Below are positions 6,970-64,000 of a stretch of 64,000 bases of DNA, piece after piece. The notes beneath the pieces were generated by a model. That model had not been told where the DNA came from. It saw nothing but the letters and a program-made list of their open reading frames with translations, and searched no databases. The stretch comes from an uncultured Candidatus Saccharibacteria bacterium (lineage in GTDB: Bacteria > Patescibacteriota > Minisyncoccia > Minisyncoccales > JAGGSE01): assembly GCA_964591195.1 (NCBI GenBank), contig CAZPZY010000001.1, forward strand, positions 7,111 to 71,110. Reading direction: 5' to 3'. The number at the start of each line of letters is the position of its first letter. Position 1 is the first letter of the stretch. The translations under genes were made by a program, and so were the position numbers.

Positions 6970-6970
6970 A

Positions 6971-8164: not shown

Positions 8165-8221
8165 AATCTATATTTTAACACATATTGCCAAAAAGACAAT
8201 TAAGAATTACAATAAGAAACA

Positions 8222-38403: not shown

Positions 38404-38439
38404 TGGCTTTAGGACTTGCCTAAAGGGTTAACAGATACG

Positions 38440-38592
38440 CCCCTATTATACCTCTTTTTGCAGTAATTTAACAGGGATTGTTGTGATTGCTCATTTTACC
38501 CACATATTCCCCATAATATCCACAAGATATCAACATTTATCCTATTTTTATCGCAACTTGCCTCTCCTTGACATTTATGTATAATGAATGTG
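38440..38592. promoter_or_regulatory. oriC-like DnaA-box cluster upstream of dnaA, plus the dnaA promoter
   Basis: TTACCCACA 38496-38504, ATATCCACA 38516-38524, TTATCCtat 38538-38546; TTGCCT-16 nt-TATAAT (38580-38585). Confidence 0.5.
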
Positions 38593-42074: not shown

Positions 42075-42876
42075 TAACTGGCGCGGCTATTTTTTAGGAG
42101 GGGTTTTCGGCTTTTTACTTGCTGAGGGGTGGCGTGCTCCTGTTTTTGATATCATTTGTTTGTTTGTTATTGGAATTTTATTGTTTACCTTTGGATTTTC
42201 AATAAATGATTTTTTTGATATTAAGGGAGATAAGTTTAAAAAAGACAAAAAAATCATTATTGGCAAGATAATCGGCGTGGGAAGGGCATTTTTCTTCTCT
42301 CTTTTCTCGGGGGTTCTAGGACTGGTTCTTTCTTTCCGTTTTGGTCTAAGGGCGTTTCTTGATGCCTTTTTGGCTGTTTTTCTTACCTTTCTTTATTCTG
42401 CTCCGCCGGTAAGATTAAAATCAAGACCCTTTTTAGACATAATCTCCCATGGTTTTTTTGCCGGTATTTTAATTTTTCTTTTTCCTCTCTTTGCCTTTGC
42501 CCCCAAAATAGACAGCCCGGAGAAACTTTTGTTGATTCCCATTTTTGTTCTCTCTATTACTGCTGAGACCAGAAATCACCTTAATGACTACCAGGCGGAT
42601 AGAGCCGAGGGACTGAAAACAACGGTTTGTTTTTTGGGTTATGAAAACTCCCAAAAACTCTTGAGGTTTTTCTTCTTCTTTTATCCTCTTACCCTTTTTC
42701 CTGTTTTTTGGCTTGTAGCCAGGAAGTTTTATTCTCTTTTTCTCTTCATTACCCTTTTCTTTCTTTTATTACTTCTGGCTAGGAAAAACCATCAGGCAGT
42801 TAGGGACTGGTTTTTGATGGACATTTACACCTTTTTTTCCTTTCTTTTCATTTTGATTTTTCATTATGGATCCTAA
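42031..42876 (+). CDS. UbiA-superfamily integral membrane prenyltransferase
   Basis: Asp-rich motifs NDFFDIKGD and NDYQADRAEG in a ~8-TM protein. Confidence 0.75.
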   Translation: MAINLKPYLKLARINNWRGYFLGGVFGFLLAEGWRAPVFDIICLFVIGILLFTFGFSINDFFDIKGDKFKKDKKIIIGKIIGVGRAFFFSLFSGVLGLVLSFRFGLRAFLDAFLAVFLTFLYSAPPVRLKSRPFLDIISHGFFAGILIFLFPLFAFAPKIDSPEKLLLIPIFVLSITAETRNHLNDYQADRAEGLKTTVCFLGYENSQKLLRFFFFFYPLTLFPVFWLVARKFYSLFLFITLFFLLLLLARKNHQAVRDWFLMDIYTFFSFLFILIFHYGS

Positions 42877-43846
42877 AAAGGTTGAACATTGTTTAGACAG
42901 GGCAATTGATTTTCTCTACCGCTCTCAATTGCCATGGGGAGAGTTTAAGACCCTTGCGAGTTGGAATTTTTTAATGATGCCTGCCTATTATGACAGCAGT
43001 CCCTTTGGCACTGGCCTGATACTTCATAATCTAAAAGGACTTAATGACGAAAGGGCAAGGAAGATGGTTGACAAGGCAATTGCCTTTTTGTTGTCTGAAA
43101 AAGAAAAGGGAGGGATTTGGAGGTTTTGGACCTCAAGAAACAAGAAAAGGATTCCTCCAGACCTAGACGATATTTCAGTGATTTCTTCTGGGCTTAAATT
43201 ATACGGCGTGCAATTTGAAGATAATAAAGATCTTGTTCTCAGCAACAGGAACAAAAATGGCTTATTTTTAACATGGATTCTTGACGAAAGACACAAGAAA
43301 AATCTATTTTGGAAAACAGCAGCAAAAGATGCTGATTGTGTTGTCAATGTCAATGTGTTAACATATCTGGAAAGGCCATTGCCTGAGGTTTGCACCTATA
43401 TTAATAAACTAATAAGCGAAAATCGCTCCAGTTCCTATTATTATCCCAGTAAACTGGCTTTTTTTTACTTTGTTTCCCGAGCAGCAAGGTCAGGGGTAAC
43501 ATGTTTCAAGAAAAACAGAGAATGGATTATCAATTCGGTCTTGTCTTGTCAGAAAAAGGATGGTTCTTTTGGAAACGAGATGGAAACTGCCCTTGGCCTT
43601 AATACCCTCTTTAACCTTAACTGTTTTGGAAAGGAAACAGAAGATGGTATAAGTTATTTATTAAGTCGGCAGAGGAGAAAGGGCGGATTCAAAAAGCAGG
43701 TTTACTTTTTGGGGATCCCCTGGTGGTTTTTGGCTCTAAGCCCCTTCTATGGTTATTATGGGTCTGAGGAAATAACCACCGGGGTTTGTATTGAGGCATT
43801 TAGGAACTATCTATCACAGAGACAATTTTATGGAGGAGGTGTTTGA
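42866..43846 (+). CDS. alpha/alpha-toroid protein with terpene-cyclase / prenyltransferase-like Q-x-x-x-G-(F/W) repeats
   Basis: Repeated motifs EKEKGGIW, QKKDGSFGN, RQRRKGGFKKQ spaced as in squalene-cyclase/prenyltransferase beta-subunit repeats; no TM. Confidence 0.4.
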   Translation: MDPKKVEHCLDRAIDFLYRSQLPWGEFKTLASWNFLMMPAYYDSSPFGTGLILHNLKGLNDERARKMVDKAIAFLLSEKEKGGIWRFWTSRNKKRIPPDLDDISVISSGLKLYGVQFEDNKDLVLSNRNKNGLFLTWILDERHKKNLFWKTAAKDADCVVNVNVLTYLERPLPEVCTYINKLISENRSSSYYYPSKLAFFYFVSRAARSGVTCFKKNREWIINSVLSCQKKDGSFGNEMETALGLNTLFNLNCFGKETEDGISYLLSRQRRKGGFKKQVYFLGIPWWFLALSPFYGYYGSEEITTGVCIEAFRNYLSQRQFYGGGV

Positions 43847-44969
43847 TACAATCATTGTTGGAGCCGGACCTGGCGGGCTGTCTGCTGGAAGATATCTAAA
43901 AGACGCCCTTATTCTGGACCAAAAGAAAGAAATTGGGTTGCCTGTTCAGTGTGCCGAGGGGCTATCAAAGAGATTTTTGGACGAAATGGACATTTCTCCT
44001 GAACCAGAATGGATATCTGTCACTATTGATACAACCCAGATTGTTTTGCCTAATGGGAAGGAGATTAATCTATATTTTCCGGGGCAAAGTTATGTGATAG
44101 ACCGGAAGGGATTTGAAAAATTTCTTGCCAGGATGTCTCAGGCGGAAATCCGCTTGGGTCAGAGGGTGGTTGATATAGAAAAGAGAGGGGGCCTTTGGGA
44201 GGTAAAAACAAGACAAGGCAAGATATTCAGGTCAAGATATCTTATCGGAGCAGATGGTCCCTTTTCAATAGTCAGGGAGAAGGTTTTTGGCCAAAAAATT
44301 AGGGTCCTACCTGTTGTTGAATACCTGGTAGAATTGACCAATAACCTTGATACCTCAAAACTTTTAATTTATCTTGACAAAGATTGGTTGGGCACCGGCT
44401 ATGCCTGGATATTTCCAAAATCAAAGAACAGGGCGAATATTGGCTTGGGTAGTGTGGAGAAGAAAGACAACCTAAACAAACTTTTAAGGGATTTTTTAGA
44501 AAACAAGGTAAAGAAGAATTTTGGACCCTATCACCTGTTGGAAAACAGAAGCAGTGTTGGGCCCTGGCTTGAGGGGCCGATAAAAATAGCCAAAGACAAT
44601 GCTTTTCTTGTTGGAGATGCAGCCGGGCTTGTTGACACCATTTCCGGGGGAGGCATAGGCAATGCAATGCTTTCTGGTCACTTGGCAGCCAAGGCAATTC
44701 TTAAGTCAGACCCTCCTTCTTACCAGAAGCAGGTTCAGTCGTTCTTTTCCGAAGACCTGTTTCAGGCACAAAAAATCCTTTATTCTTTTGACAATCAAAC
44801 CCTAAATGAACTTGGTCAGGTTTTGGAGAAAAAAAATGGGGATATTTTTTATCTGAAAAATCCGCAGGCACTTCTTGCTTTTCTCTCCAAGCCCCATTTA
44901 AGGAAAAATATTTTTGGGTTTCTTAAACTCTTTTTGATATACGCAAAATGGAAAGTCAAAAACACCTAA
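43830..44969 (+). CDS. FAD-dependent geranylgeranyl reductase family protein
   Basis: TIIVGAGPGGLSAG dinucleotide fold; GDAAGLVDTISGGGIGNAMLSGHLAA signature of GGR (ChlP / archaeal lipid saturase). Confidence 0.8.
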   Translation: MEEVFDTIIVGAGPGGLSAGRYLKDALILDQKKEIGLPVQCAEGLSKRFLDEMDISPEPEWISVTIDTTQIVLPNGKEINLYFPGQSYVIDRKGFEKFLARMSQAEIRLGQRVVDIEKRGGLWEVKTRQGKIFRSRYLIGADGPFSIVREKVFGQKIRVLPVVEYLVELTNNLDTSKLLIYLDKDWLGTGYAWIFPKSKNRANIGLGSVEKKDNLNKLLRDFLENKVKKNFGPYHLLENRSSVGPWLEGPIKIAKDNAFLVGDAAGLVDTISGGGIGNAMLSGHLAAKAILKSDPPSYQKQVQSFFSEDLFQAQKILYSFDNQTLNELGQVLEKKNGDIFYLKNPQALLAFLSKPHLRKNIFGFLKLFLIYAKWKVKNT

Positions 44970-46021
44970 AACGTTTTAGGCCCGAGATTGATAGGATTAT
45001 AAAAAGGTATCTTCCTAAAAGAGCCAGTAAGAGGTGGCTGGCTTTTGCCTTTGGGAGGTCAGGTGTTAGCCAGACAAACCTTAGGGTCGCTCAGGAGTGC
45101 TTTTTGGATCCCCTCTGGAATTTTTTAGAAAGAGGAGGAAAAAGGTGGAGACCGTTTTTTTTCTTATTACTGACCAAAGCCCTTGGAGGCAAGGTGGAAA
45201 AGGTCAAGGAGATCGCTGTTATTCTTGAATTGACCCATCAGGGCTCGCTGATCGTGGATGACCTTGAAGACAACAGCAGATTTAGGAGATCTGCGCCCTG
45301 CCTTCATCGTTTGTATGGTGTAGACGTTGCCATTAATGCCGGCAATTTCCTTTATTTCTTGCCATTTCTAACTTTGGAGAAAAATAAGAACAGGTTTCCC
45401 TGCTCAGTTCTAACCAGGGCGTATCAGGCCTGTATTCAGGAGATGGCCAATGTCCACTTGGGACAAGGAATGGATATCTATTGGCATAGGGGCAAAGGGA
45501 GGAAAATAGAAGAGAAAGAGTATCTGCGGATGGCTTCCTTCAAAACCGGCAGTTTGGCAAGACTGACAGCCCGACTGGCTTGCATTTTTTCTGGAGTTAG
45601 CGAACCAACATCTAAAAAACTGGAGAAGGCAGCGGAGAAGATTGGGGTTGCCTTCCAGATTCAGGATGACATTTTAGATATCACCCTTGGAGAGAAAGAA
45701 AGAAAGAGATTTGGGAAGGAATTTGGCAATGATATCAAGGAGGGGAAAAGGACCCTTATTGTTTTGCGGACATTAAAAAAGGCAAAGCCAAAAGAAAGAA
45801 AACAACTACTTGCCATTTTGGATAAACACCCCAACACGAAAAAAGAGATAAAAAGGGCAATAGAGATTATAAGAAAATATGATGGCGTTGAGCAGGCAAG
45901 AAAGACAGCCCAGCGCCTTTTAGACCAAGGATGGAGGATAATGGATAAAGCCCTTGTTCCTTCAAAAGCCAAGGAAGGCCTCAGGCAACTTGTTTATTAT
46001 CTGGGCAAAAGGGAAATATGA
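44948..46021 (+). CDS. polyprenyl (GGPP/FPP-type) diphosphate synthase
   Basis: First and second Asp-rich motifs LIVDDLEDNS and FQIQDDILD. Confidence 0.85.
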   Translation: MESQKHLKRFRPEIDRIIKRYLPKRASKRWLAFAFGRSGVSQTNLRVAQECFLDPLWNFLERGGKRWRPFFFLLLTKALGGKVEKVKEIAVILELTHQGSLIVDDLEDNSRFRRSAPCLHRLYGVDVAINAGNFLYFLPFLTLEKNKNRFPCSVLTRAYQACIQEMANVHLGQGMDIYWHRGKGRKIEEKEYLRMASFKTGSLARLTARLACIFSGVSEPTSKKLEKAAEKIGVAFQIQDDILDITLGEKERKRFGKEFGNDIKEGKRTLIVLRTLKKAKPKERKQLLAILDKHPNTKKEIKRAIEIIRKYDGVEQARKTAQRLLDQGWRIMDKALVPSKAKEGLRQLVYYLGKREI

Positions 46022-47172
46022 AAACAGACGATTCTCATTTTTACAAACTACCCTTAAAAAAGAAGATAGAATTTATTAAAAGGTTTTCCGGACTGAATAA
46101 AGAGGATCTTGAGATTCTCAAAAGATATCAAGAACTGCCTGATTTCTTTGATATAGAAAGCAATATTGGTCCATTCAAGATTGCTACTAATTTTTTTGTT
46201 GAGGGCAAGGAATATCTGGTACCCATGGAAACAGAGGAGCCCTCAGTGGTGGCAGCTGCCTCAAGAGGGGCAAAACTTGTCAAGGAGGGTGGCGGTTTTA
46301 GGGGCAGGTATTTAGGCAATCAAATGATTGGTCAGATTCAGCTTTTGGGGGCCAAGGACTTTAGAAAGAACAAGAAGAGAATTTTAGAGAATAAGAAAAA
46401 AATCCTTGATACTGCCAATCAGACCAATAGGTTTCTTTTAAGGATAGGAGGAGGGGCAAGAGACATAGTAGTTAAAAAACGGGGGAGGTTTTTGGTTTTA
46501 TATCTGTTTGTTGATACAAAAGATGCCATGGGAGCAAATATTGTTAATACGATGGTAGAGAAAATTTCTCCCCTCTTAACTAAATACACTCATGCCAGGG
46601 TTGGCTTGAGAATTATTTCTAATTTTGCTCCAAAAAGGATTGTTTCTGTTTGGGCAAGGGTGTCCATTGACTCATTAGAACTTAATGGTTTTTCTGGGGA
46701 AGAGGTTGCTGAGGGAATTCTTTCTGCCCAAAAATTAGCTGAACTAGACATATACCGGGCAGTTACCCACAATAAGGGAGTAATGAACGGCATAGATGCA
46801 GTTGCCTTAGCCACAGGCAATGATACCCGAGCAATTGAAGCGGCGGTTCATAGTTTTGCTGCCAGAAAAGGGAAATATCAACCCATAACCTGTTGGAAAA
46901 GAGAAAAGGAATACCTTAGAGGGGAGATTAGAACTCCTCTGCCTATTGCTACAGTAGGTGGAGCAACCTCAACCAAAAAGGCGAAACTAGCCCTAAAAAT
47001 TTTAGGAGTCAAAAATGCCCAGGAACTGGGTATTGTCGCCGGGGCAGTTGGCCTGGCAAACAATCTGGCTGCCCTTTCAGTTTTGGCAACAGAGGGAATT
47101 CAAAGGGGCCATATGAAAATCCATAAAGAGTTTGTCAAGAAGACAAGCCGACCCCGGAGTGGTCAATCTTGA
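46018..47172 (+). CDS. mvaA: hydroxymethylglutaryl-CoA reductase (catalytic domain only)
   Basis: DAMGANIVNTMVE motif and ~385-aa size of archaeal/class-I-like catalytic domain. Confidence 0.8.
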   Translation: MKTDDSHFYKLPLKKKIEFIKRFSGLNKEDLEILKRYQELPDFFDIESNIGPFKIATNFFVEGKEYLVPMETEEPSVVAAASRGAKLVKEGGGFRGRYLGNQMIGQIQLLGAKDFRKNKKRILENKKKILDTANQTNRFLLRIGGGARDIVVKKRGRFLVLYLFVDTKDAMGANIVNTMVEKISPLLTKYTHARVGLRIISNFAPKRIVSVWARVSIDSLELNGFSGEEVAEGILSAQKLAELDIYRAVTHNKGVMNGIDAVALATGNDTRAIEAAVHSFAARKGKYQPITCWKREKEYLRGEIRTPLPIATVGGATSTKKAKLALKILGVKNAQELGIVAGAVGLANNLAALSVLATEGIQRGHMKIHKEFVKKTSRPRSGQS

Positions 47173-48229
47173 TTTTTAGAGGGATAATTCCATTTTTTCT
47201 CCACTCCTTCTTAATTTTATCAGCCCTTTTTTGAGAAGAAACAAGGCAGATGCCACAGTCGCCTCCGCCTGCCCCGGCTATCTTGCCCGCTCCTCCAAAC
47301 CTTTCCGCAATTTCTGAGAGGATTTTTAGTTTTTCTGTTACGATCTCTGTTCCCGATTTCTTACTCAGTTCTTTTAGATATTTTTCATTTTCTTTGATTA
47401 GGTTTAGAATCTGTTTTTTGTTTTTTTCTCTTAAGGACAAAATCATTTTTTTTGTTGTTCTGCTGATGTCTGAAATGATTTTTTTATAAGCTTTTGGCGC
47501 TTTTTTTTGCCAGCTTTTTATTTTTTTTATTAGTTCTGGAGTAGAAGAAGGTCTGCCTGTCCAGCCAACCAAGAGTTTAAGTTCCTTTGGCAGATTTAGT
47601 TTTTCAACATAGAAATTGGGCCAGGGCATTTCAACAATTTTTCTCATATCTCTTTCTTTTTTAACTTGCTTTTTTAGCCAGTTGACATTAATCCCATGGC
47701 AGGCAAGATATCCTCCGTAGACCGAGGCAACAATATCTGCTCCGGAGCCGAGTTTTCCTTGGGCAAAAAAATGAGAAAGAGAGGCCAGTTTGAAGATTTT
47801 CTCTTTTTCTAATTTTTCTTTGTTGAACTTAAGCAAGGCAGCAATAATAGCCACGCTTGAAGCCGCTGAAAAGCCAAAGCCAATCTTTTCTTTGTTCTTA
47901 GCCCAAAGTTCTATCCTGAAGGGTTTCCATTTTCCTAAATACCTCAAACCAACCTCAATTGCTTTTCGGGCGAAGATAAGCAGTTTTTCTTCCTCTGGTT
48001 TTAGTTTCTTCAAAAAGTGCAGGTGGCCCTTTTTAAACTCTGCCTTTAGGTTTTTTAGATTATAGTTCTTTAGGGAAAGATGGATTTTTTTGTCTTGAGA
48101 ATTGGTAATTTTTGCGAAAATTCTTTTTTTAACAGCCACAACAATCGCTGGATTTTCAGGTTCCAATACCGCCCATTCGCCGGAAATAAATAACTTTCCT
48201 GGAACTGAGATGATAAATGACCTAGGCAT
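47135..48229 (-). CDS. mvaK2: phosphomevalonate kinase (GHMP family)
   Basis: N-terminal PGKLFISGEWAVLE (cf. GKLYWAGEYAILE of bacterial PMK); GFGFSAASSVAIIAAL GHMP motif. Confidence 0.7.
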   Translation of the reverse strand: MPRSFIISVPGKLFISGEWAVLEPENPAIVVAVKKRIFAKITNSQDKKIHLSLKNYNLKNLKAEFKKGHLHFLKKLKPEEEKLLIFARKAIEVGLRYLGKWKPFRIELWAKNKEKIGFGFSAASSVAIIAALLKFNKEKLEKEKIFKLASLSHFFAQGKLGSGADIVASVYGGYLACHGINVNWLKKQVKKERDMRKIVEMPWPNFYVEKLNLPKELKLLVGWTGRPSSTPELIKKIKSWQKKAPKAYKKIISDISRTTKKMILSLREKNKKQILNLIKENEKYLKELSKKSGTEIVTEKLKILSEIAERFGGAGKIAGAGGGDCGICLVSSQKRADKIKKEWRKNGIIPLKIKIDHSGVGLSS

Positions 48230-49235
48230 AATTTTTCACCCCTTTTGCTCCTAATCCTACATTAAAAAAATCAAGGTTTAGTTTTTTTAACAATTTGGTT
48301 AATTGTTTCTTGTCTTGATGAAAGCAAATAATTGCCCCTCCCCCTCCTGCTCCTGAAAGTTTGGCTGCGCCTCCTATATTCCTTACCGCCCTTACAATTT
48401 TCTCTATTTTTGGGGTAGAAACCCCCAGAACCCTGAGGGATTCCTGGGCAGTGTTGATTGAATCCTTGATTATTTCTGGGCTTCCTTTTTTAAGCCCCTC
48501 CCGCATTTTATATGTTGCCAGGGCAATATCCTTGATTTTTTCTTCCCTTAGTTTGCTGGACAGATTTCTGACCCTTTGGATAAGTTTGGCTGTTGTCATT
48601 CCCTTTTTTCGAGGGAGCAAAACAAGGACAATCTCTTTTAGAAATGGGGGGAGGTTAATATGGGTCCATTTCCCTTTTTCAAACCAGACGGTCCCGCCAA
48701 AGGTAGAGATAAAATTGTCCCCACCACTTGGCTTTCCGTGGTTGATTTTTTCTATCTCAAAAGCCATTTGATTGATTTCTTTTTTTGAAAGGTGAAATGA
48801 GAGAAACTCAGAAACTGCCTTGGAAAGAGAGACCGAAAGAGAAGCAGATGAGCCCAGTCCCATTCCAACAGGGAAATCGCTTTCTATCTCCAAAGAAAAG
48901 GGCTTTTTTATTTTCGCTTTTTCTAATATCAATCCTATCCCTGCCTTGCTGAGGTTTAAGGGATTTGATTTCAAAAATCTGAAGAGTTTTGAGAAATCGC
49001 CTTTTTTGTTTCCTTCTTGCCACAACTTCTGGCACCTTTTTGCTGTTTCTAATACCTGATTGATTTCAAATTCTCCTTCTTCTCCCAAGGGCTTATTTTC
49101 AATTTTTATTCTTTTTGCTCTCTTAATTTTTACCCTTGTTCTCTTTTCAATAGCCGAGACAATGGCTGGATAGCCATAGCAGACAGCGTGCTCTCCAATT
49201 AGATGTATTTTCCCCGGTGCCGAAGATTCGGCCAT
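48222..49235 (-). CDS. mvk: mevalonate kinase
   Basis: APGKIHLIGEHAVCYG N-terminus; PVGMGLGSSASLSVSL GHMP ATP motif. Confidence 0.85.
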   Translation of the reverse strand: MAESSAPGKIHLIGEHAVCYGYPAIVSAIEKRTRVKIKRAKRIKIENKPLGEEGEFEINQVLETAKRCQKLWQEGNKKGDFSKLFRFLKSNPLNLSKAGIGLILEKAKIKKPFSLEIESDFPVGMGLGSSASLSVSLSKAVSEFLSFHLSKKEINQMAFEIEKINHGKPSGGDNFISTFGGTVWFEKGKWTHINLPPFLKEIVLVLLPRKKGMTTAKLIQRVRNLSSKLREEKIKDIALATYKMREGLKKGSPEIIKDSINTAQESLRVLGVSTPKIEKIVRAVRNIGGAAKLSGAGGGGAIICFHQDKKQLTKLLKKLNLDFFNVGLGAKGVKNYA

Positions 49236-49512: not shown

Positions 49513-49711
49513 CCCAAAGCTAAAACGCAAGCACAACTTAAAGCGCAAATCTTATCAAATTCGAAACCCAAGATTCAAAACAATGACCAAAGTTCAAAAC
49601 CAAACCAAATCAAAAATCAAAATACAAAATGATAAATCAAAATTCAAAATGAATAAAATAATTTTGCATTTTAGATTATCATTTTGATTTTTGAGATTTG
49701 CATTTTGCATT
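49513..49711. repeat. AT-rich imperfect palindromic intergenic repeat, copy B
   Basis: Right arm AATTTTGCATTTTAGATTATCATTTTGATTTTTGAGATTTGCATTTTGCATT is near-identical to the reverse complement of the left arm of copy C; left side carries an AAAGCGCAAA unit as in copy C. Confidence 0.6.
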
Positions 49712-49861
49712 AAAAATTGTACAAGATTGAAAATCTGAGATTTTTATGATATTATTCTTGATTGTCAGAATCAATGACAAGGCAATTTGCTAAAAGTTTG
49801 CCTTTTGTTTCTGCCTTTTGCTATTTAGGAGGCTGCCATATAGATTGGTTTTTTTTAAGAT

Positions 49862-56195: not shown

Positions 56196-56234
56196 AGGTG
56201 TTTTTTTGGAGCATAATATGTTATAAAATTGATA

Positions 56235-56476
56235 AAATGCAAAATGCAAATCTCAAAATGACAATTCAAAATGCAAAATTATTTTTAAACCCAAAGCGTA
56301 AAGCGCAAAGTGTAAAGCTAAAGCGTAAAGCTTAAAGCTATAAAAGAAAGGTTTCGCTTTTCGCTTTAAGTTGTAGTTTTGCGCTTTGCGCTTTGAGCTT
56401 TGCGCTTGAATGTTGATTTTGAATTTTGAGATTTAAGATTATCATTTTGATTTTTGATTTTTGCATTTTGAATTTT
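56235..56476. repeat. AT-rich imperfect palindromic intergenic repeat, copy C, with nested GC-richer inner palindrome
   Basis: Outer arms AAAATGCAAAATGCAAATCTCAAAATGA... / ...TCATTTTGATTTTTGATTTTTGCATTTTG; inner arms (AAAGCGTAAAGCGCAAAG)n / (CTTTGCGCTTTGCGCTTT)n. Confidence 0.6.
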
Positions 56477-56481
56477 AAATT

Positions 56482-56616
56482 ATGTCCATCACCTACCAAC
56501 CAAAAAAGAGAAAAAGGAAAAGAACCCACGGATTTCTGAAGAGAATGAAAAGCAAGGACGGAAGAAAAGTGTTGGCAAGAAGGAGGAAGAAAAAAAGATG
56601 GAGAATATCGGTCTGA
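56482..56616 (+). CDS. rpmH: 50S ribosomal protein L34 (missed by the ORF track: 44 aa)
   Basis: Translation [44 protein letters not shown] matches the L34 consensus (…QP..KRKR.HGFR.RM.T..GR.VL..RR.KGR..L.V). Confidence 0.85.
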
Positions 56617-56621
56617 GTGAT

Positions 56622-56966
56622 ATGTTGCCGAGAGAAAATCGTTTGAGGAAGAACAAAGACATAAAAAATGTCTTGACAAGGGGCAAGCCAGTAAGAGAGA
56701 ATTTTTTATTTTTGAAGATTGTCAAGAATGATTTAGAATCTCCGCGCTTTGCCATTGTTGTAGGAAAGAACCTTTCCAAAAAGGCGGTGATTAGGAATAA
56801 ATTGAAGCGCCGAATTTCAGAAATAATAAGAATAAAGTTAAAAATGAATGAAATAAAACCAGTAGATGGAGTTGTTATTGCCCTGCCCGGAGCAGAAAGA
56901 ATGGACTTTAGTGGACTCAAGCAGGCAATTGAGAAAATTTTTGCCAAAGCAAAACTAATAAAATGA
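56622..56966 (+). CDS. rnpA: ribonuclease P protein component (start probably MLPRENRL)
   Basis: RLRKNKDIKNVLTRG...FAIVVGKNLSKKAVIRNKLKRRISE matches the RnpA RNR motif region; directly downstream of rpmH. Confidence 0.75.
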   Translation: MLPRENRLRKNKDIKNVLTRGKPVRENFLFLKIVKNDLESPRFAIVVGKNLSKKAVIRNKLKRRISEIIRIKLKMNEIKPVDGVVIALPGAERMDFSGLKQAIEKIFAKAKLIK

Positions 56967-57688
56967 ATTTAATTATTTATCTTTACCATATATTGCTATA
57001 CCAGCCACTATATAATAGTTTGGTCCTTTTATATCACTATCTACCTGGCCATGATTTTGGATTGAGTATAATTGTTTTGACCTTGGTGGTACGGGTGATT
57101 CTCTATCCCCTGATGCATAGTTCTCTAAAGTCCCAAAAGGCAATGTCTGCTCTTCAGCCAAAACTCCAAGAGATTCAAAGAAAACACAAGGGTGATTTAG
57201 CCAAACAAAGTCAGGCAATTATGGAACTCTATCGTAAAGAGAAGATTAATCCTGCTTCAGGATTTTTGTCTCTTCTAATTCAACTTCCTCTTTTGATTGC
57301 TCTTTACCAGGTTTTTTGGAAATTTTCCACTCCCGGTCAGGTGGTTTATCTTTATAGTTTTGTTCCCAACCCAGGAGAAATTGAACCGATGTTTTTAAAC
57401 CTCTTGAACCTGGCAGAACCATCAGTCCCTTTGGCGATTTTGGCTGGCATTTTTCAATTTTTTCAGACCAAAATGATTACCCCTCCTAGTAAAAAAGGTG
57501 GTTCAAAAGATAGTATGAGCCGATTTACCCAGCTCTTTCAAAAAGAGATGCTTTATTTCTTCCCCATTTTTACGGTTTTAATTCTTTGGCGCCTTCCCAG
57601 CGCTATTGGCCTTTTTTGGATAACAACAACCCTATTCTCAATTGGACAACAATATATGGTTTATGGAAAAGGAGATTCTAATTCCTAA
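56963..57688 (+). CDS. yidC: membrane protein insertase YidC (short form)
   Basis: ...YQPLYNSLVLL...LSIIVLTLVVRVILYPL...NPASGFLSLLIQLPLLIALYQVF conserved YidC/Oxa1 core; canonical position after rnpA. Confidence 0.8.
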   Translation: MNLIIYLYHILLYQPLYNSLVLLYHYLPGHDFGLSIIVLTLVVRVILYPLMHSSLKSQKAMSALQPKLQEIQRKHKGDLAKQSQAIMELYRKEKINPASGFLSLLIQLPLLIALYQVFWKFSTPGQVVYLYSFVPNPGEIEPMFLNLLNLAEPSVPLAILAGIFQFFQTKMITPPSKKGGSKDSMSRFTQLFQKEMLYFFPIFTVLILWRLPSAIGLFWITTTLFSIGQQYMVYGKGDSNS

Positions 57689-58124
57689 GATAAAGGAAAT
57701 TATTGGCCAATTTTTGAATAAATCAGGGCTTGATATTACCCTCAAAAAGGTAGAGCAAGTCGAGCAGACCATCTTTTTGGATTTAGAGGGAGAAGATGCC
57801 AAGCATCTTATTGGCCAACGGGGGGAGGTATTGTTTGAGATTGAGCATCTCTTAAAGGCGATCTTGAGAAGAAAACTTAAAGAGGAATTTTACATTAATT
57901 TAGACATCGCCGGTTATCGGAAGAAAAAGGACAGATACCTACGCCAGCTAGCCCGTTCCCTTGCCCAAGAGGTGGCTTTGACCAAAACCGAGAAAGAACT
58001 TCCTCCAATGCCTCCGGCTGAAAGAAGGATAATTCATCTGGAATTGGCATCTATGCCCAATGTGACAACCCAGAGCATTGGCAAGGAGCCAAACCGACGG
58101 GTGATCATCCAGCCGTATCCCTAA
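57642..58124 (+). CDS. jag: Jag/KhpB-family R3H RNA-binding protein
   Basis: C-terminal R3H motif PPAERRIIHLELASMPNVTTQSIGKEPNRRVIIQP; canonical position after yidC. Confidence 0.7.
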   Translation: MDNNIWFMEKEILIPKIKEIIGQFLNKSGLDITLKKVEQVEQTIFLDLEGEDAKHLIGQRGEVLFEIEHLLKAILRRKLKEEFYINLDIAGYRKKKDRYLRQLARSLAQEVALTKTEKELPPMPPAERRIIHLELASMPNVTTQSIGKEPNRRVIIQPYP

Positions 58125-59937
58125 GTTCTTTCTCTGATTTTTTCATTTCTCTTATTTTCAAAAGTTCTTCAGGTGAGGTAGTGATAATCTGATGCTCAAT
58201 ATCTGATGAGACAACCCTTAACATAACATGTTTGGGCCCGGCAAAGAAAAGCCCTTCCCCAACTGCTGCCCCCAGAAGAAATTCTTTTTCTGCTTCAGTT
58301 AGATTGAATGTCTTTTGGAGAATATCAATGGAGGCAGGGCTCTGCTTCATCAAAAATTGAATGACCGAATTGGTAATAATAGGCGGACCATAGATTGACC
58401 TCATAAAGTCGCTAACATCCTGGGTAATTGTTGTTACCCCCAACCAATACTTTCTTGCCCTTTTGCATATACCAAAGAGAAAGGAAGCCGAGTCTTCACT
58501 TTTCATTAGCCACCAGGCCTCGTCAACAACCAGAATTCTCTTTTTCAATTCCGAGCGAACCTTATTCCAGATATACCTCATAATAATAAACATTGCCATT
58601 GGTCTTAATTCATCTTCTATGTCCCTGATGCCAAAAACAACCAAGGGCTTATTCATTGAGATATTGCTTGGCTGGTTAAAGAAGTCAGCGTAGGTTCCCT
58701 TGGTAAATTTTCTTAACCGCTTTACCAATGAATCTGCTCCTTCCATACCCATCAAGACCTGTTCCAGGTCTTCCATTAGTGGGGTTTTCGCCCGCCAGGT
58801 TGAAGGGTCGGTTTCCGGGGTAATATCCTTGATAGCGTATGTTTCGGTCAATGCCCTGTCCATAATCGCGTCTTCTTCTGGGGTCAAGCCGCCTAACATC
58901 AGCCGCATCAGCCCTACCAGATTGATAACATTTGACCTTAAGACGTCTTTTGGCAGTTCACCTTCCCTTATATTCTCCGGCAGGTCAAAGGGATTAATAT
59001 GGTTTGGTGAGGACAAAGAAATGTTGATAAACGAGCCCCCAACTGCTTCGGCTAATGGTTTGTATTCGTTTTCTGGGTCAATAACAATGCACTCTACCCC
59101 AAACATCAGATAGCGAAGTATCTCTAACTTAACGGCATAGGACTTACCACTGCCTGATTTAGCGAAGACAACAGAATTGGCATTTTCCAGATTAAATCTG
59201 TCAAACAAAACCAAGGAGTTGTTGTGCTGATTTATTCCGTACAGGATCCCTTCGTTAGCGCTCAGGTCAGAAGAGATAAAGGGAAAGATTGAAGAGAGGG
59301 GAGAGGTGTTCATTGAGGTATGAATCTTTAATTTGTCCAATCCATAGGGAAGACAGGAGTTAAATGCCTCTCTTTGCTGGTAAAGGGCCGGCTTGATGTA
59401 GACCAGTCTTGATTCCAGAATTGACCTAATAATTGTCTTTACATCCCTGATTTCCTTCCTTGTATCTCCATAAATGGTTATGTAAACACCGAGCCTGAAC
59501 ATCCTTTCCTGGCCAGTTTGAAGTTTTCTTCTTAGGTCTTCTATGTCGCGAAAGGAGGTTTCCAGCTTCGGATCGCTTATTAGTCCCTTCTTTTCCCTTT
59601 CGGCCAGTTCTGCCTGTATCTCGGTTGTTTTTTTCATAAGTTGCTTTAGAACATAACCAGTAGGCATCGGATGGATAAAGAAAGAAAGAAGAAGAGGTGA
59701 ATTTAGATTAATTACCGGCGCGACCCAGCCAGTACTTAGATACCTGGGATAGGAGAATACAAAAAACGACTTTGCCAATCTCTCTCCTAACTGGATAAAT
59801 TCCGGTTCAACCTTAACCGAGGCCGGGGCAATAAAGTCAACTATTGCCATCTCTTCTTCTTTTATCTCTTCCATTTCCAGGGCAGGACCTTTCTTCTTTT
59901 TCTTTATGGACTCAAGAATTTTAGAAATAAAAGTCAT
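58105..59937 (-). CDS. VirB4/TraC/TrbE-family type IV secretion ATPase
   Basis: Walker A VVFAKSGSGKSYAV; Walker B LVVDEAWWLM; GVTTITQDVSDF sensor region; 610 aa. Confidence 0.75.
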   Translation of the reverse strand: MTFISKILESIKKKKKGPALEMEEIKEEEMAIVDFIAPASVKVEPEFIQLGERLAKSFFVFSYPRYLSTGWVAPVINLNSPLLLSFFIHPMPTGYVLKQLMKKTTEIQAELAEREKKGLISDPKLETSFRDIEDLRRKLQTGQERMFRLGVYITIYGDTRKEIRDVKTIIRSILESRLVYIKPALYQQREAFNSCLPYGLDKLKIHTSMNTSPLSSIFPFISSDLSANEGILYGINQHNNSLVLFDRFNLENANSVVFAKSGSGKSYAVKLEILRYLMFGVECIVIDPENEYKPLAEAVGGSFINISLSSPNHINPFDLPENIREGELPKDVLRSNVINLVGLMRLMLGGLTPEEDAIMDRALTETYAIKDITPETDPSTWRAKTPLMEDLEQVLMGMEGADSLVKRLRKFTKGTYADFFNQPSNISMNKPLVVFGIRDIEDELRPMAMFIIMRYIWNKVRSELKKRILVVDEAWWLMKSEDSASFLFGICKRARKYWLGVTTITQDVSDFMRSIYGPPIITNSVIQFLMKQSPASIDILQKTFNLTEAEKEFLLGAAVGEGLFFAGPKHVMLRVVSSDIEHQIITTSPEELLKIREMKKSEKELRDTAG

Positions 59938-59938
59938 A

Positions 59939-60580
59939 TTACCTTATTAGTTGGGGAGGAATTGGCGGGAAATAACCTCTTTCAGCTGTTTTGGGATGAT
60001 GAAGATTCCAAAAAAGTTCTATTATTTGCTCGCTTTTTAGAAGTATGGCGTTCAGACCGCACCTTTTTAGCCCCAAAGAAAGAAATTCTACTCTTTGAAG
60101 AAGGAGGGTTTTGCACTTTTGAAATTGGCTTTCAGTTAAGGACAGCCCCTTTAGTTTTTTTTCTTTTTCACCTTTTTTAAGCATAAGCCCTTCAACCTCT
60201 ACCGGGTAAAGGGGAACAATTAAATAAAAACTTTTGGTCATAATCGTTCCGCTGGCTATTAATCTTTCAATAAATTCCCGATATCCTTTTGTCTGGTCCC
60301 TTAGGAGTTTGTTTTGCTGATTCTCTTCTAACTCTTTCAATTTCTCTACATAGCCGGTAAGGTTCAACCGTTGGGTGTGGACAACAATTTGGCAAAAAAA
60401 GTCCAGAGAATTGAGCAGGTTCTGAAACTGATATATGATTGCCTCCTGTTCTTCGCCTGATTTTAGGGCAAAGTTTAGCGAGGAGGTCAATAAAATTGCC
60501 CTTAAACTTCCATCCTTCAAGATGGCAATATTTTCTCTCACGTCCTTAATTTCCAAAAAGTGTTGGATTGGCGTTTTCAT
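59939..60580 (-). CDS. hypothetical protein in T4SS-like operon
   Basis: 213-aa ORF tightly coupled (2-nt gap) to the virB4-like gene; no recognisable motif. Confidence 0.4.
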   Translation of the reverse strand: MKTPIQHFLEIKDVRENIAILKDGSLRAILLTSSLNFALKSGEEQEAIIYQFQNLLNSLDFFCQIVVHTQRLNLTGYVEKLKELEENQQNKLLRDQTKGYREFIERLIASGTIMTKSFYLIVPLYPVEVEGLMLKKGEKEKKLKGLSLTESQFQKCKTLLLQRVEFLSLGLKRCGLNAILLKSEQIIELFWNLHHPKTAERGYFPPIPPQLIR

Positions 60581-60585
60581 ATTTT

Positions 60586-61023
60586 TTATTGTCTCCGACC
60601 AGTTTCAACCCGGATTGAAAGATTACGAAGTCGGTTTTCAGAGGAGGTCTTTTGGGGCAGGTTTCTTTTAGACAGATCTAAAGATGGCGAGGATGACCTG
60701 ACAAATGTTTCGGTAAACAAATCAGAGCCAAAGGACTTTTTCTTAAAGATAAAGAATTTCGGCGAACTGAGGTAATAAACAAATAGATTTTTTAGAAAGG
60801 TGGGGAAAGGTCGGCCCTTTATCTTGCCAAAGGCAAGAAAAAGGAAAAATCCGGCTATGGGCAGGGCTAAAAGCACAAACAGGGCAGTGTTTTTTTTGCC
60901 TAAAATTAGGTAAAGGATAAAGTCCAGCCCTGCTCCACTTGCCACAAAGAGAAACTGCTTGAAGGTAAGCGGACCTACTATCTTTGTTTCCATTTCAATA
61001 AATTGTGGAACTCCGTATTGCAT
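60586..61023 (-). CDS. small membrane protein (2 predicted TM helices), VirB3-like candidate
   Basis: Hydrophobic segments FLFVASGAGLDFILYLILG and LFVLLALPIAGFFLFLAFG; position immediately upstream of the VirB4-like ATPase operon. Confidence 0.4.
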   Translation of the reverse strand: MQYGVPQFIEMETKIVGPLTFKQFLFVASGAGLDFILYLILGKKNTALFVLLALPIAGFFLFLAFGKIKGRPFPTFLKNLFVYYLSSPKFFIFKKKSFGSDLFTETFVRSSSPSLDLSKRNLPQKTSSENRLRNLSIRVETGRRQ

Positions 61024-61034
61024 AGTGATATTAC

Positions 61035-61370
61035 AAATTCGAATTTCGAATATCGAAATCCTTCATCCCGCAGCTTTTCTCCTTTAACAACAAGAGGTTT
61101 CAATTAAATTACTAAATAAATTATCAATTATTCACCTTGAATAACTATCAAAAGGTGCGGGATAAACAAATTCGAATGTTCAAATGCTCAAAATTAAATG
61201 CAAAATGCAAAAATCAAAAATCAAAATGAAAGATTAAAATGCAAAAAGAATTCTCTTTGAATTTTTCTTTTTCATTTTGCATTTTGATTTTTGATTTTTG
61301 ATTTTTGATTTGGTTTGGTTTTGAATTTTGGTCATTGTTTCGAATTTCGGATTTCGGATTTCGGATTTTT
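61035..61370. repeat. AT-rich imperfect palindromic intergenic repeat, copy D, interrupted by a 99-bp insert (61065..61163) with perfect 8-bp terminal inverted repeats
   Basis: 61165-61330 >95% identical to copy A (38233-38395); insert bounded by ATCCCGCA ... TGCGGGAT; outer arms (AAATCCGAA)n / (TTCGGATTT)n. Confidence 0.7.
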
Positions 61371-61431
61371 CTCCACTGAGTTTTGAATTAGGATGGTTTG
61401 CCAAATTCAAATTATACCCATTCTCGCTTGC

Positions 61432-61923
61432 TTATTCAATAGGTTCTCTGTATTGGTCTGTTTGTCTTATGGTTTTTTCACCTACCTCCGGTACTTTCGG
61501 TTCCGGTTTTTCTGGTTGTCCTGAAATCGGCTCAGGTGGCTTTATCTCTGCCTCTTCAGATTCTTTCTCTTCTTTTTTAGGTTTAGGACCAGGTGGCTGG
61601 ATTCCATAATAGATCTGATTTAATTCCGCCTTAACTGGCAGAAAGATAAATCGGTTGATGTCGTGAAAAACCTCTTTGCTTAATTTTTCTTCAAAGTTTA
61701 GTATCTCTTCCAATTTTATTCTAAAATCCTCAACAGGTAAAAGTCCAAGCAGGACCCTGCCTATATATTTGGCAATTGCTTGACTTTTATCTGCGATATT
61801 ATGTCTCTGGCAGATTTGGGCAAATATTTTGGCGTTCTCTTGGGAGAAAATTGCTTCCTGGAGAGCAGAGGGAAGTTGTTCGTACAATTTCCACCATTCC
61901 TCCTTTGTGTATTCTTTTTCCAT
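61432..61923 (-). CDS. hypothetical protein with Pro/Glu/Lys-rich C-terminal tail
   Basis: 163-aa ORF between repeat D and the large membrane protein gene. Confidence 0.35.
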   Translation of the reverse strand: MEKEYTKEEWWKLYEQLPSALQEAIFSQENAKIFAQICQRHNIADKSQAIAKYIGRVLLGLLPVEDFRIKLEEILNFEEKLSKEVFHDINRFIFLPVKAELNQIYYGIQPPGPKPKKEEKESEEAEIKPPEPISGQPEKPEPKVPEVGEKTIRQTDQYREPIE

Positions 61924-61963
61924 AAATAAATTAAATTAAACAATTTCTTCACCTAATAATTCT

Positions 61964-64000
61964 TTAGGTCTGGCCCTTTTTGTCTTCGGTTGCCCATTTG
62001 TTTATTTTATCTTCCAATTTTCCTATTTTGCCTTCCAATGTTTTTTGCTCGCTTATATCCTTTAATTCCTCGTTAGCCAATCTTTCCGGATTCTTCTTCA
62101 GGGCTTTTTCTAAATTCTTTCTTTGCTCTTCTTTCAGTTGGTTAAATGCCTCCTCAAAGGCACTTCTAATCTCCGGACTAAGGCGGTTCAGTTTATCCTG
62201 CCAGGCATTTATCTGCTGGAGGCTTATCTTTTCAGGGGCAAAAAGACCGGATTCCGGGGCAAACATAGAGGTCAGATAGGTAGCCATTGTGGGATTATTG
62301 ACCACATACCACATAGTTCCCCTTTCTTTTGCTCCCTCCATATACTTGTCGGCAAACATTTTCTTAAATATCTTGATTGCTGCAACGTTGTTTTCTGGTA
62401 GCCAGTATTTGTGGATTGCATCCCATACCTCTTTGACTGACCGGTCATATTTTTCTTTTCTCTTATTAAATTCTTCATCTGATTCCCCGGCTCGCTTTTC
62501 TGGACCCTTTCCTAAACCCAAAGATTCGGCACTCATATCTCCTACTGCCTCCGGCTTTATTCCCTTTATTATCTGAGGAATAAAGGAGTAGTTTTCCTTG
62601 ATGAATTTGTTCATTAGTTTCTCTGCCTCCTTTTCTTCTCCTTTCTCTCGGAGTTCTTCTATATTGCTTAACTCCTTTTCTTTACCTTTTTCCCGGGCTA
62701 TCTTCAGAAGTTCCTCTCTTGATGGCTCTGTTATACCCATTCTTTTTCTTATCTCTGAATTTAATTTTGTAGCCACATCGTCGATATAATGGGGGTTGGC
62801 TCTGGCTATTATGTTAAAGGCAGTTCGGTTTCCTATTAGCGCCGCCTCGCCCATATCCCTTTTTATCTGCTCCTCAAATTTTTCTTTTTCTTCTGGCTTC
62901 ATTAACATTTTAGCGTCGTCCAAATTATTGTCATGGATCATTGCCTGGAGGACTCCTATCCGTTCTCCCCTGGTAGCAGTAGGTTTGTTGTATGCCTTTA
63001 ATTGTTCCTCAACCGGTTTGCCTGAGTTTTCTCTAAAGGTCCTGGATATATCCTCTTTTTCTATTCTGGCTGGGGCGCTGAGTGTCCTGCCAAGGCTCTG
63101 TTTAGCCACAATATAGGGAGAAGCGGCTACTGTTCCCAACTGACCTAGCCTTCTTTTCATCCATCCCTTGGCTCCTGCCTCTCCTTTTCCGTATTGGGTC
63201 CACTTTGGCATATATCTTGCCCACTCTTCTCCTTTTCTTCTTACCTTTTCCGGCATTGCTTCTCCAACCTTTTTTCCTGCCCATTTAGCGCCCGTTTGAG
63301 CCATCTTTCCTATGGCCTCACTTCCCGGCAAGATCTTTACACCTTCACTAGCGGCTGAGATTGTGGCGAAGAAACCTACCAAAAGAATGAAAATAGGAAA
63401 GATATATCTATAAAGCCCGGCAAGGATACTTGGTGCTGGAGAGGTTGTGATTACCCAGTCAACCATTGACTTGTTTGCTAAAAAGATAAAGAAAGCGCCA
63501 AAGATACCAATGACACACCATTGGATAAAGGAGGTCCACCAGTTGTCCCAGTAGAGAAATCCAGGGAAAAACATCTTTATGTACCTGTTTGGACCAAAGA
63601 CCCGGCTAACAAAGGCAATGGGCGAGAAAATGATTAAAATCCACAAAAAGACATATCTTGTTAAAAACAAAAGGCAGTAAAGAACTATTACCACAATGGC
63701 AACAATGCCGAAAATGATAAAGACCAAGGCGTCAATTATTGCCTTTAGAGGATCTTTTCCTCCCTGTTCTTGCAAGCCATTGCTTATGGCTTGGACAAAA
63801 CTGTTGTTAAACCCTCCTGTTAAGAGATGCTTCATTAAATAATTTGAAAAATCAATAATCCATCCGCAGATAACCGGGGTAAAATTAATTAAAAGGGCAA
63901 TGATAATAAGAACCGGCAGTGTCCTTTTTGCCTCATATTCCTTGATTCCTAAAATAATTCCCAGGGCTATGACAATCAGGCCAAGGACAAGGAAGATATT
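61964..64000 (-). CDS. large polytopic membrane protein with long coiled-coil hydrophilic C-terminal domain (VirB6/TrbL-like candidate); 5' end lies beyond the window
   Basis: Minus-strand frame stays open upstream of the annotated M (…NIFLVLGLIVIALGIILG…IDFSNYL-MKHLL…) to the window edge; multiple TM helices then a ~450-aa charged region. Confidence 0.5.
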   Translation of the reverse strand, partial: NIFLVLGLIVIALGIILGIKEYEAKRTLPVLIIIALLINFTPVICGWIIDFSNYLMKHLLTGGFNNSFVQAISNGLQEQGGKDPLKAIIDALVFIIFGIVAIVVIVLYCLLFLTRYVFLWILIIFSPIAFVSRVFGPNRYIKMFFPGFLYWDNWWTSFIQWCVIGIFGAFFIFLANKSMVDWVITTSPAPSILAGLYRYIFPIFILLVGFFATISAASEGVKILPGSEAIGKMAQTGAKWAGKKVGEAMPEKVRRKGEEWARYMPKWTQYGKGEAGAKGWMKRRLGQLGTVAASPYIVAKQSLGRTLSAPARIEKEDISRTFRENSGKPVEEQLKAYNKPTATRGERIGVLQAMIHDNNLDDAKMLMKPEEKEKFEEQIKRDMGEAALIGNRTAFNIIARANPHYIDDVATKLNSEIRKRMGITEPSREELLKIAREKGKEKELSNIEELREKGEEKEAEKLMNKFIKENYSFIPQIIKGIKPEAVGDMSAESLGLGKGPEKRAGESDEEFNKRKEKYDRSVKEVWDAIHKYWLPENNVAAIKIFKKMFADKYMEGAKERGTMWYVVNNPTMATYLTSMFAPESGLFAPEKISLQQINAWQDKLNRLSPEIRSAFEEAFNQLKEEQRKNLEKALKKNPERLANEELKDISEQKTLEGKIGKLEDKINKWATEDKKGQT

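Follow-up and report, generated by a model that had tools for sequence, protein, structure and literature searches.

Type IV secretion systems (T4SSs) of Patescibacteria have recently been surveyed on the basis of 2,474 virB4 genes, which revealed a distinct VirB4 clade related to the mating-pair formation class MPF-FATA (Quinonero-Coronel et al. 2025, PMC12102498). The survey found TrsD, which is remotely homologous to the VirB4 N-terminus, to be the most abundant accompanying component and described PrgI/VirB3, VirB6, and arrays of VirB2-like pilins in these systems. VirB8, VirB1, and relaxase genes are very few, genes for type IV coupling proteins (T4CPs) are seldom located nearby, and the clusters of Paceibacteria lie near dnaA, dnaN, rnpA, rpmH, and ksgA (PMC12102498). 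In Southlakia epibionticum, the orthologous cluster (SEML1_0006-0019) includes pilins and has neither a coupling protein nor a relaxase; transposon sequencing showed it to be essential for growth as an epibiont (Wang et al. 2023, PMC10633639). According to a 2025 review, this is the first T4SS found to be essential to its bearer and the only monoderm T4SS with VirB2-like pilins (PMC12857230). A 2024 perspective called its role “completely unknown” and put forward effector delivery and nucleotide uptake as ideas (PMC11665869). Here, we analyzed a VirB4-centered gene module at the end of a 64,000-nt stretch of DNA (contig CAZPZY010000001.1 of an uncultured Candidatus Saccharibacteria bacterium; this whole stretch is referred to as the window). 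The identity of the locus as a Patescibacteria T4SS core is almost certain. Very probably, it encodes the cytoplasmic-membrane core of a chromosomal system, i.e., of an MPF-FATA relative that has lost the DNA-processing parts. The system is not a conjugation apparatus.

In common with the Patescibacteria T4SS, the locus combines virB4 and an adjacent trsD gene with prgI/virB3, virB6, and a nearby array of genes for VirB2-like pilin domains; no relaxase or coupling protein gene is found nearby, and the cluster occupies a chromosomal site in the vicinity of dnaA, rnpA, and rpmH. Nothing fundamental differs. Particular to this locus are a 408-nt repeat-bearing spacer between the gene of a 163-aa protein (p163) and virB3, the lack of a VirB1-like hydrolase gene in the window, and large pilin-domain proteins (421 and 917 aa) in place of small pilins. 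Because the locus matches the system of PMC12102498 and PMC10633639, the finding is a correct rediscovery of a system that is already known and not a new kind of system.

The 610-aa protein matched the NCBIfam model conju_CD1110 (“VirB4-like conjugal transfer ATPase”) with 382 bits (4.8e-114; curated cut-off 325) over model positions 162-732 of 752. It also matched the solved C-terminal domain of VirB4 (PDB 4ag5) with 7e-42 and TrwK with 1e-6. A Walker A motif (AKSGSGKS, residues 259-266), a Walker B motif (ILVVDE, 468-473), and a TITQ motif (503-506) are present. The protein is thus predicted from its sequence to consist of the C-terminal two-thirds of the VirB4 N-domain followed by the P-loop ATPase domain. 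A preliminary description of this DNA, made from the sequence alone, had assigned the ATPase to the VirB4/TrbE family, and the matches to conju_CD1110 and 4ag5 bear this out. The opposing case that it had named, a HerA/FtsK-type ATPase, was rejected, since HerA/DUF87 reached just 34 bits compared with 96 bits for P-loop_TraG in the Pfam scan (2.7e-27) and 382 bits for conju_CD1110.

Weak matches of the ATPase to the NCBIfam models CedB (2.2e-14) and CedD would be in line with an import machine that takes up DNA or nucleotides from the host, as ComB of H. pylori or the archaeal Ced system do. Such a function, which would supply a cell unable to make these compounds, has been proposed (PMC11665869), Patescibacteria are described as lacking nucleotide synthesis (PMC10633639), and the preliminary description had suggested DNA uptake or cell-cell contact. 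However, CedB reached 53 bits (cut-off 700) and CedD 19 bits (cut-off 600), and the CedB value therefore points to generic VirB4/HerA similarity. Moreover, the gene tables list no adjacent ComEC, ComB, or Ced (CedA/CedA1) partners. In S. epibionticum, loss of comEC ends competence but not growth, whereas the T4SS is essential (PMC12857230), an argument that excludes the ComEC-dependent route only. Overall, we consider an import function improbable.

In order to compare the locus with others, VirB4 relatives were sought in one genome per GTDB species. A total of 380 were found, and synteny was analyzed for the best 80, which are 65-75% identical, by BLAST of all window proteins against the open reading frames (ORFs) of these related loci. 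The labels of the best 80 are nearly all Patescibacteria/Paceibacteria or unclassified “bacterium”, with one Pseudomonadota; the relatives include Nealsonbacteria, Wildermuthbacteria, Minisyncoccales, Paceibacterota, and Ca. Microsyncoccus archaeolyticus PMX.50.

The 213-aa protein encoded upstream of virB4 had been regarded as having no assignable function, and this view has to be revised. It aligned to positions 109-268 of 894 of the NCBIfam model VirB4_plasma (8.7e-8), and the 610-aa protein aligned to the contiguous span of positions 269-893. In addition, the 213-aa protein matched the TrsD/TraD model (6e-4), and the contig gene table gives a precomputed Pfam TraC-like entry (PF26593). Based on the contiguous alignment, the TrsD match, and the TraC-like entry, the protein is a TrsD-type homologue of the extreme N-terminus of VirB4 that is encoded by a separate gene. 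VirB4_plasma and TrsD were each matched by all 42 orthologues and conju_CD1110 by 41 of the 42. A profile of the 213-aa family gave chance-level matches only against the PDB. A weak PHROGs match to terminase large subunits (1.6e-6) was treated as uninformative.

Two features of the cluster could be taken as signs of a pseudogenised, non-functional remnant: VirB4 is distributed over two ORFs in different frames, with the trsD stop codon one nucleotide before the virB4 ATG, and the 408-nt repeat-bearing spacer breaks the operon. The split, however, is the natural TrsD/TrsE arrangement of pGO1-type systems (PMC12102498), and TrsD is encoded by an ORF of its own in all 77 related loci that have it. 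Among 79 related loci, trsD and virB4 are in different frames in 57 and separated by a stop codon in the remaining ones. Since VirB4 is split in every related locus, neither a sequencing error nor a pseudogene accounts for it, and a frameshift as the origin of the split was ruled out. The ORFs are intact, with 45-61% identity, and all catalytic motifs are preserved. That the cluster is a decaying remnant is therefore scarcely credible.

Between the gene of p163 and trsD, the module encodes a 145-aa protein that matched Pfam PrgI (PF12666) with 38 bits (2.4e-9; threshold 27), residues 9-91 aligning to profile positions 6-89 of 91. PrgI is the VirB3 equivalent of Gram-positive systems. Hydropathy scans revealed two transmembrane (TM) segments in the 145-aa protein and none in the 163-, 213-, and 610-aa proteins. 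In 74 related loci, the PrgI/VirB3 gene is located directly upstream of trsD. The two TM segments noted earlier for the 145-aa protein are confirmed, and the PrgI match bears out the VirB3-like member of the set that had been proposed.

As had been noted, the large membrane protein has a reading frame that runs past the window edge. The window contains 678 of its codons, marginally fewer than the more than 680 aa given earlier, and the complete protein comprises 796 aa (795 in the gene call of the contig). The complete gene was obtained from ENA ERZ27227320 contig k141_79881 (72 kb; here L001), to which a search for exact copies of the 610-aa protein had led. Contig and window are identical across an overlap of 15.9 kb, and the window edge corresponds to L001 5938. 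The gene spans L001 5584-7974 and starts 354 nt past the edge, so that the window holds the C-terminal 678 of the 796 residues. A hydropathy scan indicated a signal peptide and about 6-7 TM segments, followed by a C-terminal domain of 426 aa, of which 36% are charged. The assignment to VirB6 relies on precomputed tables, orthologues, and a fold search. TrbL_3 (PF19590) is precomputed for the protein and for most of 72 database homologues, TrbL/VirB6 (PF04610) is precomputed for some homologues, and in a local scan TrbL was matched by 7 of 37 syntenic orthologues. In the AlphaFold model of a 95%-identical homologue, residues 45-325 form a TM bundle and residues 415-784 an all-alpha domain, both modelled with confidence, and the linker between them (327-413) is disordered. 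With this model, Foldseek repeatedly retrieved the TrwI/VirB6 chains of R388 with probabilities of 0.92-1.00 and target-normalised TM-scores of 0.44-0.51. Both the TrbL_3/TrbL and the TrwI fold matches support the initial reading as a large VirB6-like protein, and the protein fits the category of “extended VirB6” (PMC12857230). A profile of the family gave chance-level matches only against the PDB. In an Rfam search over 56-64 kb, nothing was obtained beyond a sub-threshold match to the Chlorobi-RRM RNA inside the virB6 coding region (26.8 bits, threshold 45), which was taken as chance.

All ORFs that the preliminary description had listed were recovered at the same coordinates on the minus strand, and both the ORF list and the Pfam domains confirm that the module adjoins rpmH-rnpA-yidC-jag (Table 1). 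The jag and virB4 genes are convergent, and their 3' ends overlap by 20 nt. The usual order in the related loci is pilin genes, a gene for a small membrane protein, virB6, zero to two extra genes, the p163 gene, virB3, trsD, virB4, and the convergent jag-yidC-rnpA genes; in one subset, pilin genes are located between virB4 and jag. Gene order and position are conserved in about 80 species-level Paceibacteria genomes. In the window, dnaA is found at 38584-39948 and the minimum of the cumulative GC skew at 38-40 kb, which places the cluster about 18-20 kb from the likely origin. The G+C content of the cluster is like that of the remainder of the window.

Among characterized proteins, those most closely related to VirB4, PrgI, and TrsD serve conjugation in Gram-positive plasmids and integrative conjugative elements (ICEs), and the order VirB6, VirB3, VirB4 is that of PrgH-PrgI-PrgJ (prgH-I-J) of pCF10, which shares the PrgI Pfam family and whose PrgJ is given by RefSeq the family of the CD1110-type VirB4 model. 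A separate, small N-terminal VirB4 homologue is also present as TrsD in TrsC-TrsD-TrsE of pGO1/pSK41, and Gram-positive MPF-FATA systems likewise have a monoderm architecture without outer-membrane core genes. This could suggest that the genes are an integrated conjugative element or a plasmid remnant that exports DNA. However, no relaxase, VirD4, TcpA, or integrase was found among the genes annotated over ~70 kb, which comprise the window and a further 6 kb past its edge. This search drew on the gene tables of the contig and on Pfam scans of the longer ORFs not listed there and left a few ORFs of more than 200 aa unscanned; within these limits the earlier remark that no relaxase or coupling protein is visible in the module holds. 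A close relative's 22-kb locus also has neither a relaxase nor a T4CP gene. The annotated genes elsewhere in the window are housekeeping and metabolic only. FtsK (1111-3282) is the only FtsK-like ATPase among the genes examined, and its FtsK alpha and gamma domains ruled it out as a coupling protein. The constant chromosomal position in about 80 species and the absence of a compositional break also argue against a conjugative element. Furthermore, VirB4 is better conserved than the flanking housekeeping genes (Table 1); the loci were picked by VirB4 similarity, which biases the comparison towards VirB4, and despite this selection the within-genome comparison suggests that VirB4 is under strong constraint. 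We thus regard a conjugative element as very improbable.

Compared with MPF-FATA conjugation systems, the locus has no adjacent relaxase, T4CP (PcfC), VirB8-like (PrgL), PrgK-type hydrolase, or LPXTG adhesin gene; the relaxase/T4CP and the PrgL/TraM and PrgK/TraG/CD419 components by which systems of the pCF10, pGO1, CTn2, and ICESaNEM316 types are recognized were not found. Whereas Gram-positive systems have no genes for VirB2-like pilin domains, such genes are present here, and unlike in the MPF-FATA plasmids and ICEs the cluster is chromosomal and vertically conserved and not located on a mobile element. An hhalign comparison of the family alignments with single pCF10 PrgD-PrgM sequences did not rise above noise, which is probably due to the use of single sequences as templates. 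With the VirB systems of R388 and Agrobacterium (MPF-T), the locus shares the VirB4 fold and motifs, the VirB6-like TM bundle (TrwI), and a two-helix VirB2/TrbC-like pilin domain. It differs from them in the lack of VirB5, VirB7-VirB11, and VirD4, in the split VirB4, in a VirB6 with a 426-aa cytoplasmic or hydrophilic all-alpha domain, and in pilin domains that are fused to large extracellular domains.

These pilin-domain proteins are encoded outside the window. No pilin had been visible in the preliminary description, which is correct for the window itself; beyond its edge, however, the extended contig carries three T4SS_pilin-domain genes, beginning ~0.7 kb past the edge (Table 1). Two of the proteins are above the threshold of Pfam T4SS_pilin (PF18895; 26.6 bits), with 30.3 bits (917 aa) and 28.3 bits (421 aa), and one is just below (449 aa, of which only 310 aa are on the fetched stretch; 25.9 bits). 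Sub-threshold matches to TrbC/VirB2 were obtained for two of the three. Each protein starts with a signal peptide and an N-terminal two-helix domain, followed by a large C-terminal domain. From their sequences, these C-terminal domains are predicted to be extracellular and often cysteine-rich; the 917-aa protein contains 43 cysteines. The pilin-domain ORFs of the related loci have a median length of ~475 aa, comprise at least 300 aa in 52 of 61 cases, and reach up to ~2,000 aa. In view of this size, the proteins may be membrane-anchored adhesins or minor tip-like subunits instead of a polymerising major pilin. The published survey (PMC12102498) does not comment on this large size, which fits poorly with a pilin that simply polymerises.

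Between the pilin-domain genes and virB6 lies the gene of a small membrane protein (Table 1) whose hydrophobic region (about residues 29-72) leaves room for two TM helices. In at least 23 related loci, this gene is conserved beside those for the pilin-domain proteins. No family match was obtained for the protein, and it could be a further component that has gone unrecognised. In GCA_053985605.1 (L086), whose VirB6-like protein is 84% identical, the cluster extends upstream with more pilin-domain genes, ksgA, and a gene for a LysM-LysM-CHAP protein; this hydrolase was found in this close relative only, ~9 kb upstream of virB6.

In the T4SSs studied so far, VirB4 is a hexameric motor docked to the membrane, where it drives pilin extraction as well, and the inner-membrane platform is formed by VirB6. 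If the roles of VirB3, VirB4, and VirB6 in these systems are transferred to the present locus, TrsD and the 610-aa VirB4 would form a hexameric motor, which PrgI/VirB3 would tether to the membrane beneath a VirB6 oligomer. ATP hydrolysis would pull the two-helix VirB2-like pilin domains from the membrane and assemble or display them on the cell surface. The resulting structure would contact the host cell, and proteins or other macromolecules may pass through or alongside it. We give this pilin-display mechanism an about even or somewhat lower chance.

Several points weigh against this interpretation of the locus. In local Pfam scans of the window's proteins, neither the TraC-like match of the 213-aa protein nor the TrbL_3 match of the VirB6-like protein was reproduced, and despite the high probabilities the Foldseek E-values of the VirB6-like model against TrwI are weak (0.17-1.7). 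No VirB8-like or VirB1-like gene is present in the window. The hairpin-bearing 408-nt spacer could uncouple the expression of virB6 and p163 from that of virB3, trsD, and virB4. Furthermore, pilin domains fused to C-terminal domains of 300-2,000 aa may not polymerise like VirB2, and the pilus-assembly step is transferred from diderm systems. Finally, the role of the system has been called “completely unknown” (PMC11665869).

The locus provides a clean example of the Patescibacteria T4SS from Paceibacteria with the full core order. An orthologous cluster (L034) is present in Ca. Microsyncoccus archaeolyticus PMX.50, which we take to be a cultured parasite of archaea; if so, genetics and imaging would be possible there in principle. 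Beyond the known system, what remains of interest in the locus is the unnamed 163-aa family, whose C-terminal motif is tethered, and the large pilin-domain fusions just outside the window.

The 163-aa protein had been described as lacking an assignable function, and this remains valid: it gave no matches in Pfam, NCBIfam, PHROGs, or PDB sequences, a profile of its family reached only chance level against the PDB, and a Foldseek search of its model against the PDB retrieved nothing. The AlphaFold model consists of a six-helix domain (residues 1-108; predicted local distance difference test score ~90) and a disordered tail, and thus predicts a soluble, all-helical protein that is not NTF2-like. 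In the family alignment, the tail ends in the motif D-x-Y-R-E-P, of which Y-R-E is invariant and D156 and P161 are kept in at least 90% of the sequences. The linker varies from about 20 to 200 aa; longer orthologues (294-335 aa) differ in linker length alone and end in DPY(R/K)E-x-PL. With E <=0.001, 6,131 representative clusters of the family were found in a library of 1.84 billion proteins, nearly all of them standalone proteins of 130-170 aa. In about 58 of 68 related loci, the gene of a family member is flanked by virB6 and virB3. The family is the sole undescribed element of the cluster, as it is not named among the published components, and we consider p163 a candidate accessory T4SS component.

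Its C-terminal peptide might dock onto the VirB4/TrsD motor or onto the cytoplasmic domain of the extended VirB6. In addition, p163 could replace the missing coupling protein as an adaptor for substrates or assembly, or it could be a substrate itself. Taken together, namely p163 as an unrecognised T4SS component of Paceibacteria whose peptide docks onto the motor or VirB6 and which serves as adaptor or substrate, this proposal is tentative, and we doubt that it holds in all its parts. If it were true, together with the fusion of pilin domains to cysteine-rich domains, the machine would work unlike any T4SS studied. In any case, p163 is a conserved unnamed partner whose tethered C-terminal motif offers a handle on binding to VirB4, TrsD, and VirB6.

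The tail of p163 also bears on whether the system is an effector translocator, which would inject proteins such as toxins or host-manipulating factors into the host and use the pilin-domain proteins as a conduit or adhesin only. T4SS secretion signals can be C-terminal, and the conserved C-terminal peptide of p163 on its disordered tail is reminiscent of them. Effector delivery has been speculated upon for these systems (PMC11665869, PMC10633639), and protein-exporting T4SSs without a coupling protein exist in the form of Ptl and Brucella VirB (PMC12102498). On the other hand, neither the cluster nor its immediate surroundings encode a candidate effector or a coupling protein, and nothing here separates effector delivery from the display of a pilus or adhesin; both can hold together. 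Effector translocation appears rather unlikely to us.

Many relatives carry an additional ~2 kb between virB6 and the p163 gene (e.g., L015 6393-8291). The operon strand of this segment encodes an acidic, helical protein of 159 aa, and the opposite strand encodes a membrane-anchored protein of 467 aa. Neither of the two is present in the cluster of the window.

The spacer between the p163 gene and virB3 contains repeat copy D, and the interruption of the module by this repeat is therefore real, as had been proposed. A 141-nt stretch of repeat D is 98% identical to 38240-38380, upstream of dnaA, and the repeat regions comprise the repeat families D2, D3, D5, and D7 and the inverted repeats I6 and I12. 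As an RNA of the operon strand, repeat D forms a single long A/U hairpin (-43 kcal/mol, z = -4.4). A scan for promoters and terminators gave counts no higher than in shuffled controls, and we therefore make no regulatory claim for the spacer; repeat D may nonetheless affect the continuity of the transcript from virB6-p163 to virB3-trsD-virB4.

In 41 of 55 related loci, the junction of the p163 gene and virB3 is at most 30 nt long (median 5). It measures 430-530 nt in ten others and 785 nt in one. Most of the long gaps contain an independently inserted small ORF of ~120-150 aa that differs between loci (about ten genomes: L018, L037, L038, L052, L057, L059, L060, L061, L063, and L066), and the ends of two gaps are inverted repeats of each other. 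The window's spacer holds no credible ORF but only the hairpin repeat D. Given the differing ORFs inserted elsewhere and the ORF-less repeat here, the junction looks like a hotspot inside a T4SS operon at which small selfish elements insert repeatedly. By eye, several of the gap ORFs resemble the four-helix-bundle “23S rRNA intervening-sequence protein” and one resembles the GxxExxY type.

Repeat D belongs to a family of palindromic, A/T-rich intergenic repeats with (CAAAAT/GATTTT)n-like units, of which further copies are located at 38240-38410, 49557-49719, and 56232-56486. An alignment of the four copies showed that those at ~49.6 and ~56.3 kb are imperfect and partly inverted. One copy lies just upstream of dnaA and is followed by the DnaA-box-like motif TATCCACA at ~38.5 kb; another lies just upstream of rpmH. 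The family could be an element resembling miniature inverted-repeat transposable elements or repetitive extragenic palindromic sequences (MITE/REP-like), or a processing or terminator hairpin.

Table 1 Features of the T4SS module and its neighbors. Positions and strands refer to the window, or to the extended contig where L001 is given; median identities are those in the related loci, which were picked by VirB4 similarity.
Feature	Position	Strand or orientation	Basis or remark	Median identity
VirB4-type ATPase, 610 aa	58105-59937	-	ORF list	68%
TrsD-like protein, 213 aa	59939-60580	-	ORF list	53%
PrgI/VirB3-like protein, 145 aa	60586-61023	-	ORF list	36%
Non-coding spacer, 408 nt	61024-61431		with repeat D, 61164-61361	
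Unnamed soluble protein p163, 163 aa	61432-61923	-	ORF list	37%
Extended VirB6-like protein, frame open to window edge	61964-64000	-	678 codons inside window	32%
rpmH	56482-56616	+	L34-like 44-aa ORF	
rnpA	56598-56966	+	Pfam Ribonuclease_P (contig gene table)	42%
yidC	56963-57688	+	Pfam 60KD_IMP (contig gene table)	47%
jag	57642-58124	+	Pfam R3H (contig gene table)	43%
Small membrane protein, 99-130 aa	L001 5207-5599	-	beyond window	
Three T4SS_pilin-domain proteins (917, 421, 449 aa)	L001 1-5210	divergent from virB6	PF18895	

Apart from the T4SS module, the window contains several isoprenoid genes (5839-9223 and 42031-49235) in what is an ultrasmall bacterium. The mevalonate pathway is apparently complete, with thiolase, 3-hydroxy-3-methylglutaryl-CoA (HMG-CoA) synthase, HMG-CoA reductase, two GHMP kinases, and an MVD-like decarboxylase, and genes for a polyprenyl synthase, a UbiA-family prenyltransferase, and a geranylgeranyl-reductase-like flavoprotein are present as well. 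Near these genes, a class I lysyl-tRNA synthetase (17677-19359), RtcB (11709-13151), archease, and an MJ0043_C-domain protein are encoded, all of which are known mostly from archaea. In addition, a 384-aa protein made of LVIVD beta-propeller repeats is encoded at 24303-25457 on the minus strand, where its neighbors are a two-component system and a T2SSE/PilB-like ATPase (26527-27807). At the DNA level, the protein repeats are seen as five copies of a 118-nt unit at a spacing of 147 nt (repeat family D1).

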